Shown here: piece by piece, positions 10,024 to 58,667 of the stretch
Layout of the letters: every line of letters begins with the position of its first letter
Numbering within the stretch: the first letter of the stretch is position 1
Origin: a virus
Virus record (IMG/VR): IMGVR_UViG_3300015263_000944
Location: 107,395 to 171,394 of that record
DNA length: 64,000 bases
Direction: 5' to 3' (one strand)
Made by a program: the position numbers and the translations under genes
The notes under the pieces: generated by a model
What the model was told of the DNA's origin: nothing
What the model saw: the letters and a program-made list of their open reading frames with translations, nothing else
The model's database searches: none

Positions 10024-10113
10024 GTCGGAGCGGAGGGAATCGAACCCACATCTCGGATTTATCAGATCCTAAGCCGGGTATAAGCCGGGTGCATTTCCAT
10101 TATGCTACGCTCC
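10024..10113 (-). tRNA. tRNA-Ile(GAT)-like with a 19-nt insertion between D-arm and anticodon stem
   Basis: Canonical acceptor, D-arm, anticodon arm (GGAT CTGATAA ATCC) and T-arm. The extra CCCGGCTTATACCCGGCTT carries a 9-nt direct repeat. Confidence 0.5.
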
Positions 10114-10164
10114 GAAGAGTCGGTGCGTAGCTGCATATGAGAAAATGTGTCATGGTTACTCCAG

Positions 10165-14112: not shown

Positions 14113-14113
14113 A

Positions 14114-14150
14114 TGGTGGCCGACTAGGGATTCGAACCCAAGCAGACGAC
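14114..14150 (-). other. Orphan tRNA 3' fragment (T-arm plus acceptor plus encoded CCA)
   Basis: ...TTGGGTTCGAATCCCTAGTCGGCCACCA with no matching 5' half. Confidence 0.35.
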
Positions 14151-14472
14151 TTCGCTAACTATGAACCCGCCGAAGCAGGGTTTTGTCTCCCGTCATCTGG
14201 TATTTCCGAAAACTCGGCCTCTAAATACCCTCATGAGATTCAAAGACTGGCTACTTTCTGAAAACGGCAATCGCACAGGAGCAAAGATCGGACTCTACGC
14301 TCCTATCGATGACGCTCTCGGCCAATATCCGCCACTCTATGGCACTCCATCTGCCGCCGATCTGATCACTTACATCGACATTCACTACGGCAAGAAAGGC
14401 GTGCCCGGCAAGAACGGAATCATCCGTTATCCTGAACCTCACCACGCTGTCGGCCAAGGCCGAAAACGCTAG

Positions 14473-15316: not shown

Positions 15317-15348
15317 CATAGTATGACTCATTCGATGAATGAATCAAG

Positions 15349-17061: not shown

Positions 17062-17068
17062 ATGTCAG

Positions 17069-17147
17069 AGGCCGCAGGCGGATTCGAACCACTTGACGCC
17101 AGATTTGCAGTCTGGTGCTCCACCACGAAGCTTTCGTCTCCACGGCC
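17069..17147 (-). tRNA. tRNA-Cys(GCA)-like with an expanded, palindromic D-region
   Basis: Anticodon arm CCAGA CTGCAAA TCTGG; about 7 extra nt around the D-arm (ACGAAAGCTTCGT). Confidence 0.5.
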
Positions 17148-17221
17148 AGTGAGTTGTTGGCGTCATGATTTACGACCTTTGCTCTTATCACTGGGACGGT
17201 CAAGCAGGGACCAACAACAAG

Positions 17222-18053: not shown

Positions 18054-18088
18054 TTTTATATCATCCCAACCTTTCAGTCAAGATGAAG

Positions 18089-18973: not shown

Positions 18974-19062
18974 ATTACTGCGGATCGTGAATCGGATACT
19001 ATCCGAAACGACTAAGGCTAATTCCGCAAAGCCCCAACACTTTAGTTCTTGTGTTGTTTCAG

Positions 19063-19133
19063 CAGGAGCGGGAGGACTCGAACCCCCACCAACGGTTTTG
19101 GAGACCGACATGCTACCATTACACCACGCACCT
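19063..19133 (-). tRNA. tRNA-Trp(CCA)
   Basis: Loop CTCCAAA. Confidence 0.7.
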
Positions 19134-19138
19134 GTGTT

Positions 19139-19274
19139 CAACATGTCCACGTCGTGGACATGTTGGTGAAACGTGTCGAAGTTTTTGCATTTTTTCGACA
19201 CGTTTCTGGAACGTGTCGCAATTTTTGCATTTTTGCGACACGTTTTTGTGACATGTCGTTATCGGCGACATGTC
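19139..19274. promoter_or_regulatory. Array of four palindromes sharing half-site AC(A/G)TGTCG
   Basis: Palindromes at 19139-19165, 19168-19206, 19211-19243 and 19250-19274. Confidence 0.5.
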
Positions 19275-19278
19275 AAAG

Positions 19279-19409
19279 TCGGGGAGGTAGGATTCGAACC
19301 TACAATCTTCAGTTCCAAAATACTGATGCTTGTTTGTAAGTTTCGCATGTGGGGGACGCCGAGGCGTCCAAGTTTGAGAAACTGGTGTTAACCATTTAGC
19401 TTCTCCCCG
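19279..19409 (-). tRNA. tRNA-like gene interrupted by ~57-nt conserved hairpin element (copy E); anticodon loop 8 nt (ATTTTGGA)
   Basis: Perfectly pairing acceptor CGGGGAG/CTCCCCG; T-arm GTAGGTTCGAATCCTAC; insert between D-arm and anticodon stem. Confidence 0.45.
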
Positions 19410-19411
19410 AG

Positions 19412-19483
19412 TAGCGACGGCTGGACTCGAACCAGCACTAACCGGCTTATGAAACCAGTGCTTTACCTTTAAGCTACGTCGCC
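19412..19483 (-). tRNA. tRNA-Met(CAT) elongator-type
   Basis: Loop TTCATAA. Confidence 0.7.
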
Positions 19484-19486
19484 ATA

Positions 19487-19777
19487 TCAAACGATGAACT
19501 TCCCTTGCAGGATGAACATCTCAAGCTGGTCGATTTCCTTCTTCGCTTTGACCAGATCTTTCGTTCGCAATCCGTAAGGACAGTCTTCGACGAAGTACGC
19601 CATTGCTGCTGCCTTTGCATCGTGAACCGAATACTGATCGAGCGGATCGACATACCTTTTCGACAAGACAACCATCTGAACTGACCAGATTGCCCGACTC
19701 CGAATTTGCTCTTCGGTGATCGGTTCTTTAGGTTCAGGCGGCTTCCGTCTAAAGAGACGAACCAGCCAGCCAAACAT
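19487..19777 (-). CDS. Hypothetical protein
   Basis: 96 aa. Confidence 0.4.
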   Translation of the reverse strand: MFGWLVRLFRRKPPEPKEPITEEQIRSRAIWSVQMVVLSKRYVDPLDQYSVHDAKAAAMAYFVEDCPYGLRTKDLVKAKKEIDQLEMFILQGKFIV

Positions 19778-19827
19778 TTTGCCTCCGAGGACTTGCTATA
19801 CACATAGCTACTCCTCATAAGGCAAGG

Positions 19828-19901: not shown

Positions 19902-20007
19902 ATTGTAACCATCCAAGTCGATGCAGCAGGTGTCCCCTGCGCCCATGGCAGGGGACAAACAAATCCGAAGTTTTGTTTGTAAGCTCCATCAGTAGGAGAT
20001 GGTCAAG

Positions 20008-20079: not shown

Positions 20080-20087
20080 ATAAAAAG

Positions 20088-20211
20088 TGGAGGTGGTGGG
20101 ATTCGAACCCACATTGCTTTCGCCAAAAGAAAGTTTTTTACCGTTTGTATGTTCCGCAGTTGGGGGATGGCGAACCATCCAAGTTTGAGAAACAGTGTTT
20201 TTTACACCCCC
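20088..20211 (-). tRNA. tRNA-like gene interrupted by conserved element (copy F); anticodon arm CTTTC TTTTGGC GAAAG
   Basis: Acceptor GGGGGTG/CACCTCC; degenerate D-arm. Confidence 0.4.
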
Positions 20212-20237
20212 GGTTGTTGAATGACACGAACCATAAA

Positions 20238-20258
20238 GAATGGTTCGCAGCATTCGAG
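20238..20258. other. Perfect 8-bp hairpin CGAACCAT-AAAG-AATGGTTCG next to tRNA-Pro
   Basis: Seen directly; possible processing or terminator hairpin. Confidence 0.4.
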
Positions 20259-21106: not shown

Positions 21107-21181
21107 GGTGTGCGAAGGGAATTGAACCCTCACCTTCAGCTTCACAAACTGACGTGCAGAAACCACTACACTACGCACACC
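21107..21181 (-). tRNA. tRNA-His(GTG) with encoded G-1/C73
   Basis: Loop TTGTGAA. Confidence 0.7.
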
Positions 21182-21188
21182 ATCTCGT

Positions 21189-21246
21189 AGTTTCACTGAA
21201 ACTGGCAGTTTCACTACGGAGTGAAACACCATGTTTCAGTGAAACA
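21189..21246. promoter_or_regulatory. Three palindromes with half-site GTTTCA(C)
   Basis: Palindromes at 21189-21203, 21208-21227 and 21232-21246. Confidence 0.45.
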
Positions 21247-21252
21247 TTGGAG

Positions 21253-21644: not shown

Positions 21645-21694
21645 AAAAAAAAGGCTCGCTCAGGCGAATTTCTCCACCTGAGCGAGCCTTTTAT
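21645..21694. terminator. Bidirectional rho-independent terminator
   Basis: A8, then GGCTCGCTCAGG...CCTGAGCGAGCC, then TTTTAT. Confidence 0.7.
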
Positions 21695-57613: not shown

Positions 57614-58667
57614 TGTCCTTCCCGTTGATCTGCAAATAGTGATCCGGCGTCTTCCCAGACAACACATCTCTCGTCAAGTCAAGCATGTATCGCTTGAAAG
57701 TTCGATCAAATTGCTCATAGTCGTTGAACTTCAGCACCTCTTTCAAGGCATCAAGGCCACTTTTGTCTGATGCTGTCTTAAGGAATTGGTGGAACGTATC
57801 CTGACCAAACTCCTTGCGGATCATCAGACAGAGACAGAATGCCGATTGGTCAAACAGTCGTTTGTTGGCTTCTGAGAGACTCGCATATTGATCACGGCTC
57901 ATGGTCAGCAGACCTTCGCTGAAATACATGGGCTGGTTGCCTTCCAATCGAGGTTTCAAATCCTTGAGTTCCTCTCGAATCTGACCAAGCGAACCATTCA
58001 GCACAGCAATCCCACGATCCGACCACCATCCAAAATTTGCATTGTACTTCTGCTGGAACTCGGCCATGACTACCTCCGTCAGAGGCACGGGCACAGTGTG
58101 GGACGGGGAACCATTGATGAGCAAAAACACAACAGTTTCCTTGATCTTACCTTCAGGGGTTCGACGCACTTCCACACGACTCGAAGTGAGCTTGAACAGC
58201 TTCTCGAACAAAGCAGGGTCATCGACACAGATCATCTTGCATTCTGTAGAGAAGTCGATGTCATAGAAGCCCCAGCGAGCCAGCATCCAAGTCTTGATTT
58301 GCTCAAGGTGCTTGTGCAAGAATTCCGCTTGAGTGTTGTTGAGAGAAAGCACAGTAAAGTTCTTGCTAGTCCAGCGGTTCCATTCCAGCCCTTCAATGTC
58401 CTTTGGGATATTGCTGGCATTGTGCATCTCGGTTGTGACTTCCAATGGAAGACGAACCTTGGTGATCGGAGTCTCGTCGGCTGCAAACGCAGAACAAGAC
58501 AAGAACAAAAGAATCAGTAGACTTTGCAAGAACTTCACTTTGTGCCTCCAGTGGTTAAGCAGCAAGTTCCCGGAGATCCTGTTCATTCCAGTCGCTCCGA
58601 ATTCGATCCTTGTACTGCTTGATGAGTTGGCTGATTCTGCTTTCGCTGACGCCAAACTTGGCCCCAA
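57576..58667 (-). CDS. Secreted hypothetical protein
   Basis: Internal signal peptide LLILLFLSCSAFA. The start is uncertain. Confidence 0.45.
   Translation of the reverse strand: MGPSLASAKAESANSSSSTRIEFGATGMNRISGNLLLNHWRHKVKFLQSLLILLFLSCSAFAADETPITKVRLPLEVTTEMHNASNIPKDIEGLEWNRWTSKNFTVLSLNNTQAEFLHKHLEQIKTWMLARWGFYDIDFSTECKMICVDDPALFEKLFKLTSSRVEVRRTPEGKIKETVVFLLINGSPSHTVPVPLTEVVMAEFQQKYNANFGWWSDRGIAVLNGSLGQIREELKDLKPRLEGNQPMYFSEGLLTMSRDQYASLSEANKRLFDQSAFCLCLMIRKEFGQDTFHQFLKTASDKSGLDALKEVLKFNDYEQFDRTFKRYMLDLTRDVLSGKTPDHYLQINGKDTKLSSSVFSSSS

Follow-up and report, generated by a model that had tools for sequence, protein, structure and literature searches.

An orphan palindrome array in the tRNA operon of a viral-record element is probably a copy of a widespread, SoFic-linked binding-site array

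What is the nature of a 145-nt spacer (19134–19278) that separates two tRNA genes and is filled by four perfect palindromes? The spacer lies in a 64-kb stretch of DNA from a viral record, the whole of which is referred to here as the window. On one side stands the gene for tRNA-Trp (CCA) (19062–19133, minus strand), the first gene downstream of the palindromes on the transcribed strand; immediately upstream is an interrupted tRNA gene (19279–19409, minus strand), whose 59-nt insertion is placed by Rfam in the D-loop (47.3 bits). A preliminary description, made from the sequence alone, had located the palindromes between these two genes, in agreement with the tRNA calls, and had judged an operator array for a dimeric DNA-binding protein, or else a region of RNA processing rich in hairpins, more likely than terminators. 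Comparison with public data suggests that the array is probably an orphan copy of a widespread double-stranded DNA binding-site array, for which the name 'SoFic boxes' is coined here, putatively bound by dimers of SoFic-type proteins.

A perfect-palindrome scan delimits the four elements. P1 (19139–19165) is a short palindrome with 13-bp arms around a 1-nt centre (CAACATGTCCACG-T-CGTGGACATGTTG); its half-sites, ACATGTCC at 19141–19148 and GGACATGT at 19156–19163, are 15 bp apart from start to start. The next two are long. P2 (19168–19206) has 13-bp arms and a 13-nt centre (GAAACGTGTCGAA-N13-TTCGACACGTTTC): 25 bp separate the starts of its half-sites (19171–19178 and 19196–19203), and the 17 bp between the cores read AAGTTTTTGCATTTTTT. 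P3 (19210–19244), with 12-bp arms and an 11-nt centre (AACGTGTCGCAA-N11-TTGCGACACGTT), shows the same 25-bp distance between half-sites at 19211–19218 and 19236–19243, the sequence between its cores being CAATTTTTGCATTTTTG. P4 (19249–19275) is again short, with 10-bp arms flanking a 7-nt centre (TGACATGTCG-TTATCGG-CGACATGTCA) and half-sites at 19251–19258 and 19266–19273, 15 bp from start to start. Arm lengths of 13, 13, 11 and 9 bp had originally been reported: the first two are exact, whereas P3 and P4 measure 12 and 10 bp. Only 5 nt lie between P1 and the 5′ end of tRNA-Trp, and 3 nt between P4 and the 3′ end of the interrupted tRNA.

The proposal that all four palindromes are built on one core, ACRTGTCG, is borne out. 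Eight copies of the half-site consensus ACRTGTCG(A/C) are present in the array: six match exactly and the two of P1 carry one mismatch each, the same variant standing in both arms, so that the deviation is symmetric. Forward half-sites start at 19141, 19171, 19211 and 19251 and reverse ones at 19156, 19196, 19236 and 19266; orientation alternates and the successive spacings are 15, 15, 25, 15, 25, 15 and 15 bp. Exact ACRTGTCG occurs eight times in the window, six of them inside the array. The window contains 21 perfect palindromes whose arms reach 9 bp or more, as against 1–6 in five shuffles, and the 137-bp array stretch holds five of the 21, the fifth being formed by the right arm of P2 and the left arm of P3. 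P2 and P3 constitute a 40-bp tandem direct repeat (19157–19236, two copies, 83% identity), the unit consisting of a long palindrome plus spacer. A possible 30-codon open reading frame across the array was dismissed, as 40 bp is not divisible by three and the number of units varies.

Both flanking tRNA genes are part of a minus-strand array that comprises more than 45 tRNA genes. Since co-oriented tRNA genes are only 3 and 5 nt away, the palindromes are almost certainly transcribed.

The preliminary description had called for a genome-wide motif search; a search across public data located the array in many other genomes. The scan pattern, TGTCG-N13-19-CGACAYGTT-N2-8-AACRTGTCG, was derived from the window and selects loci with one long palindrome and the next half-site; chance alone should produce about three matches in 596 Gb. 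It matched at least 120 loci in metagenome contigs and at least 120 in contigs of a one-genome-per-species collection, at least 240 in many phyla, and the family frequencies given below refer to samples of 120 loci per collection. The source taxa include Pseudomonas, Paracandidimonas, Phyllobacterium, Acidobacteria, Planctomycetota, Bacteroidota, Ignavibacteria, Cyanobacteria, Verrucomicrobia, Actinobacteria and one methanogen. Among the 234 unique matches listed, the first gap measures 17 nt in 175 and the second 5 nt in 168, neither value being imposed by the query; two other features beyond the query are ACR before the first core, in 129, and a partner half-site at +15, in 93. The resulting grammar consists of alternating half-sites at 25 bp within long palindromes and at 15 bp within short ones and between palindromes, with a canonical period of 70 bp. 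The short-long-long-short order of the window falls within the architectures of this family, and its four palindromes very probably belong to it. A full-text literature search for the motif strings returned primer coincidences only, and as far as can be told the grammar is undescribed.

Within the element itself the situation is different. Neither the window (motif and BLAST search) nor the 10 kb to its right contains a further copy of the motif, the array being the sole place with paired half-sites; the 74 kb thus covered seem to be part of a contig of ~239 kb. A motif found nowhere else had been named as part of what would refute an operator: this absence does hold within the 74 kb and would, taken alone, argue against an operator, but it fails across public data, and the outside loci change the picture.

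The centres of the family's long palindromes share a further property. The 17-bp centre is on average 77% A+T, rising to 96% at the central positions, independently of genome composition, and usually comprises two A- or T-runs at a distance of ~10 bp, whose arrangement shows no polarity with respect to the gene; the centres of P2 and P3 are likewise A+T-rich with A/T tracts. Phased A-tracts bend DNA, which would fit a dimer that reaches across half-sites separated by 25 bp. Among family members, 12% have long arms of 13 bp or more and 2.7% have short arms of that length, which places the arms of the window at the top of the distribution.

Which protein might read such an array? Clustering of the flanking open reading frames revealed one dominant family, composed according to Pfam of Fic_N, a Fic domain (HPFxDGNGRxGR) and a SoFic-like_C winged helix, and an array-linked member matches the solved SoFic structures over its full length (E 4e-145). 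A SoFic-like gene is present at 68 of the 120 listed metagenome loci and 56 of the 120 listed genome loci, typically 0–100 bp from the array. All 53 complete Fic genes of the metagenome set have an adjacent array, ~0–185 bp away, and on a Martelella plasmid (NZ_CP054860.1) the match lies 37 bp upstream of a 'protein adenylyltransferase Fic'. A putative recognition helix, A(K/R)RQTAxxYL, is among the best-conserved parts of the array-linked proteins. Half-site position 8 carries the same base in 60 of 76 loci, for which reason an analysis of co-variation with winged-helix residues was abandoned.

By our position criteria, with gene boundaries estimated from tblastn, the array stands only upstream of the gene in 72 Fic-linked loci, only downstream in 24 and on both sides in three. 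The downstream-only arrays (~24 loci, about a quarter of those linked to Fic) usually start 0–6 bp after the Fic stop codon; named examples of downstream or both-side arrays are L239, L315 and L352. About 40% of the listed bacterial loci have no Fic gene near the array, and the window array, which has no adjacent Fic_N–Fic–SoFic_C gene, resembles them. The neighbours at Fic-less loci are diverse, with none dominant (HipA_C, AbiEi_1, AAA_14-DUF4143, DUF6577, DUF6088, DUF2130), and none of 132 non-Fic open reading frames beside orphan arrays contains the SoFic-type recognition helix. Since about a quarter of the Fic-linked arrays are downstream and ~40% of arrays are without a nearby Fic gene, a simple picture of autoregulation is incomplete.

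The association was also approached from the protein side. Sixteen SoFic-like genes of PLSDB plasmids were picked by protein similarity alone, which avoids selection by motif, and their upstream regions were read. Of the seven genes with at least 53% identity to the reference, five carry RTGTCG...CGACAY palindromes in the 100 bp that precede the ATG, and six of the nine genes that are at most 49% identical display RTGTTA-N17-TAACAY at the same 25-bp spacing. Neither group of these 16 plasmid genes contains the half-site type of the other clade (Fisher p ~0.005 and ~0.01). In three rhizobial cases (Mesorhizobium, A. vitis and Rhizobium) the start codon itself is embedded in the final half-site, CGACATG. 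Half-site sequence thus follows the protein clade on an unchanged geometry, the behaviour expected of a protein and its own operator. Upstream of the SoFic-like gene of Neisseria gonorrhoeae (L371) there is neither an RTGTCG nor an RTGTTA palindrome; their place is taken by ACATATA-type motifs that recur over the 120 bp preceding the start codon and may represent a third operator variant. The record itself, listed in PLSDB as a 2.17-Mb 'plasmid', looks like a mislabelled chromosome.

Recent work has established that Fic enzymes with a winged-helix tail act as toxins or translation regulators and, at the same time, as autoregulators. SoFic of Shewanella oneidensis (SO_4266 / mloA) binds sequence-specifically, as a dimer and not as a monomer, to the 100 bp immediately upstream of its own gene, and AMPylates EF-Tu in a dimer-dependent manner; no binding motif was reported (bioRxiv 10.64898/2026.07.09.737422). 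The array-linked proteins are close homologues of SoFic and most arrays are situated in the region upstream of the start that SoFic binds; the window array differs in having no SoFic gene beside it. CccR of Yersinia pseudotuberculosis, a Fic enzyme with a C-terminal DNA-binding domain, represses its own promoter as a dimer, through an operator of two inverted 10-bp half-sites with an unusually long spacer of 26 bp (PMC9755527). Widely spaced inverted repeats bound by a dimeric Fic-HTH autorepressor are thus common ground, whereas the CccR half-site is different (AGATAATCAT) and forms a single palindrome in place of a periodic array of long and short ones. The only candidate structural match for a CccR-type protein, its identity putative, is PDB 7cb8, and it is distant (E 1e-11). 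The sopC locus of the F plasmid consists of ~40-bp tandem units, each with a dimer-bound inverted repeat, in variable copy number. The window array is analogous in its ~40-bp tandem units with an inverted repeat and in its variable copy number; however, no partition gene is near it, the sequences are unrelated and the family is tied to Fic, not to ParA/ParB-type proteins.

Judged on sequence comparison, the SoFic-box family is likely to be the operator of SoFic-type proteins. The original proposal of an operator array for a dimeric DNA-binding protein is strengthened by the association with SoFic genes, the clade-linked half-site, the absence of strand bias, the A+T-rich spacers and the published autoregulators. 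In the mechanism that we favour, a SoFic-box array would most likely be the operator of a dimeric protein that represses its own promoter. From the co-variation of half-site and clade and from the published promoter binding we infer that a SoFic-type dimer binds the window array as well; the protein would be encoded by the host or outside the 74 kb read. The array lies inside a co-directional tRNA operon, and tRNA-Trp stands where bacterial loci oriented alike have their SoFic-like gene. Once bound, the array might be a roadblock or operator to the tRNAs downstream of it; alternatively, it might titrate the protein as a decoy.

Several observations sit uneasily with this reading. There is no tblastn match to a SoFic-like gene in the window or in a second contig described below, and no Fic gene among the genes called in the 10 kb to the right of the window; as noted, the motif has no second copy in 74 kb. 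Orphan arrays can also be relics, the palindromes of the window are more perfect than the family norm, which hints at an additional force at the level of hairpins, and the number of units varies between near-identical contigs, so that the exact number of sites is not tightly constrained.

The second contig supplies a natural variant. A 96-aa ORFan (19487–19777, minus strand), which immediately precedes tRNA-Met, lacks homologues among 5.8 billion proteins and is also encoded on the 120-kb JGI contig Ga0247387_10000633 (L120), which is 99.9% identical to the window over 18.7 kb. A 114-aa open reading frame at 19474–19818, in a different frame from the ORFan, looks spurious, and relatives of the 96-aa protein and of a 166-aa neighbour were sought in IMG/VR and none found. 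The 40-bp long unit is present in three copies on the second contig (10560–10660) as compared to two in the window (19139–19258), and the centre base of P1 is A/T-flipped to its complement. Slippage, and template switching or inversion at the palindrome, could account for these differences. As copy number and P1 centre differ between otherwise near-identical contigs, the array is a hotspot of change.

The element to which the array belongs, as represented by the window and its right flank (L362), is characterized by the huge tRNA array, a majority of ORFans, and genes for DnaJ, PhoH and an NAD-dependent ligase. It further encodes an ECF-like sigma factor (Sigma70_r2/r4; ~58555–59103, minus strand), an eIF-1a-like protein, Amidoligase_2, a ThiF/E2-like pair, and CHRD and major-vault-protein shoulder-domain proteins. 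No PHROG or virion hallmarks were recognized among ten large open reading frames, and the 'phage' nature of the element is therefore unproven; among cultured phages the region has no near relative.

Among the 240 sampled loci, the arrays most similar to that of the window share ~90% identity with it over 49 nt of the P3 region, including the spacer tccagaa and the centre caaaaat.gaaaaattg, and belong to Pseudomonas azerbaijanoccidentalis (L279) and two metagenome contigs, one of them L145. In the same orientation, a Fic gene follows the array in the pseudomonad where tRNA-Trp follows in the window. The Fic genes beside the intact arrays of L279 and L145 are remnants of 116–123 aa (L279, 6730–7101; L145, 591–941), which keep the Fic motif and lack the N-terminal domain and the winged helix: arrays evidently outlive their gene.

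Viral sequences yield few parallels. The window array has no blastn match in 50,697 cultured phage records, and SoFic-like genes occur in only three records of cultured phages. The scan pattern matches IMG/VR nine times; perhaps half of these matches are genuine, and a Fic gene accompanies none of them. A pattern of three half-sites spaced at 40 bp has no match in IMG/VR, the element itself did not turn up in these IMG/VR scans, and a 16-base pattern gave only single matches at chance level in the viral collection. An unrelated phage-like contig (L155, with a GP88 domain) contains a long and a short palindrome as a pair 60 nt upstream of tRNA-Trp. Among the ~120 loci scanned for a general link between orphan arrays and tRNA genes, the window and this contig are the only cases.

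The most serious alternative is a non-functional relic: a fragment of a bacterial SoFic promoter would have entered a recombination-prone tRNA region by horizontal transfer, possibly from a pseudomonad-like genome, and would since have undergone neutral slippage, its palindromic symmetry being kept by template switching. The SoFic-type identity of the array would stand, and it would serve no function in the element. The missing Fic gene and second motif copy in the 74 kb favour this scenario, as do the change from two to three long units and the flipped P1 centre between contigs that are 99.9% identical, the decayed Fic genes next to the closest arrays, and a tRNA region interspersed with ORFans and an antitoxin-domain gene. 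A decaying fragment is harder to reconcile with eight half-sites out of eight within one mismatch of the consensus, with the symmetry of the deviation in P1, with a short-long-long-short unit that is intact, and with the recurrence of Fic-less arrays in several viral or phage-like contigs. On this evidence we consider a relic possible though unlikely.

If, on the other hand, the orphan array is a functional binding site, it could constitute a DNA device, either a decoy for host SoFic dimers or a switch coupling the tRNAs of the element to the SoFic state of the host; this specific proposal is doubtful. Because SoFic AMPylates EF-Tu and stops translation only as a dimer, capture by a decoy would blunt a Fic-based response to infection. 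In either version DNA itself, with no protein, would form the counter-measure or sensor, and the two SoFic activities, DNA binding and control of translation, would be tied to tRNA supply.

That the spacer is almost certainly transcribed invites a reading at the level of RNA: four hairpins in the tRNA precursor could insulate the tRNAs, guide or block ribonucleases, or yield small stable RNAs. Besides the co-oriented tRNA genes a few nucleotides away on either side, this reading draws on the fold of the minus strand, which forms exactly four hairpins (-68.8 kcal/mol, z -10.6; z ~-10.5 on either strand), and on arms that are longer and more perfect than those of the family at large. Strong hairpins also occur in other tRNA spacers (18054–18087, 15318–15347 and 19902–20006, all minus strand), the first of them containing four G.U pairs, possible on the transcribed strand alone, and thus structured at the RNA level. 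The window palindromes, on the contrary, contain no G.U among 48 base pairs and bear no strand mark. In the family, the paired R/Y position is Watson–Crick in 22 palindromes and G.U in six on the sense strand of the gene and seven on the antisense strand, hence without strand bias; the window shares its sequence, spacing and A/T-tract spacers with this family, which shows no strand polarity. Arm symmetry is significant only to about position 9 (z ~4 at position 8). Moreover, the family mostly resides in promoter regions of protein genes, and Rfam 15 run on the spacer retrieved only the flanking tRNAs, anything else being noise (E ≥0.3). The lack of strand bias, the limited arm symmetry and the A+T-rich centres point to recognition of double-stranded half-sites over a conserved hairpin, and a primary RNA function appears improbable; as the array is almost certainly transcribed and unusually perfect, a secondary role of the hairpins in the tRNA transcript is possible alongside binding by a SoFic-type dimer.

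That a REP/BIME- or MITE-type palindromic element, mobile or self-amplifying, inserted between the tRNAs is highly improbable. REPs are present in high copy number within a genome and carry GTAG/CGTC tags (PMC3733652). Intergenic clusters of short palindromes in alternating orientation are a shared trait, and one variant of the family does behave in a REP/MITE-like fashion: Fimbriiglobus MAGs harbour more than 20 dispersed ~80-bp elements of the same half-sites (GTGGCGACACGTT-N-AACGTGTCGG, loop, CCGACACGTT-N-AACGTGTCGCCAC), with compensatory changes in the inner spacers and no Fic gene nearby (L244, L249, L251, L258, L261, L266, L267, L281–L283, L289, L290, L296, L300, L307–L309, L316 and L319). 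The window array, in contrast, is a single copy in the 74 kb of the element read, terminal tags and target-site duplications are absent, and most genomes have just one array, tied to a single gene family.

Intrinsic terminators or attenuators can be dismissed: a consensus scan does find two terminator-like sites on the plus strand, where arms of adjacent palindromes are followed by T-runs, but all neighbouring genes are on the minus strand, no U-tract follows any hairpin there, the T-runs correspond to the A/T-tract spacers conserved in the family, and a genuine bidirectional terminator in the tRNA array (21649–21692) looks quite different. The earlier exclusion of terminators is accordingly upheld, while its premise that T-tracts are absent applies to the transcribed minus strand only: on the plus strand the long centres are T-runs and TTTTTG follows P3. 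Integron attC sites, parS, CRISPR repeats, type III toxin–antitoxin RNA repeats, LexA and DnaA boxes and ECF-sigma promoters were set aside, as the array does not match their defining features.

The array grammar offers a testable operator across phyla, ACRTGTCG at 15 and 25 bp with an RTGTTA variant in the sister clade, and has revealed many gene-less copies, including those in the tRNA operon of the window and in a few viral contigs. Should SoFic-type proteins indeed bind it, the SoFic regulon would be predictable in any genome and the persistence of arrays without the gene would be explicable; it could then be asked whether mobile elements use such arrays against, or together with, a host enzyme that targets EF-Tu.

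The surrounding tRNA cluster displays further peculiarities. A second cluster of three palindromes occupies a tRNA spacer at 21181–21251 (minus strand), built on a different core, GTTTCA(C)/(G)TGAAAC, with an RNA fold z of -8.4. The interrupted tRNA next to the SoFic-box array, which has an apparent 8-nt anticodon loop (AUUUUGGA), shares a homologous ~59-nt insertion with a second tRNA-like gene at 20080–20257 (minus strand) that ARAGORN missed entirely. The shared insertion reads ACAC..GTTTCTCAAACTTGGA, followed by a G+C hairpin and then CCCCCA..TGCG.AAC.TACAAAC; a search for ribozyme or intron families in these insertions gave no Rfam match. Other odd or over-long tRNA-like genes, all on the minus strand, are located at 17062–17220, 14113–14471, 34533–34654, 34147–34237, 33517–33616 and 10024–10114. 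Two of these, a Cys-like gene whose D region is odd and a 3′ half that ends in CCA, stand in spacers left empty by ARAGORN. Rfam tRNA matches of 91–122 nt are also among them, lengths that imply insertions.
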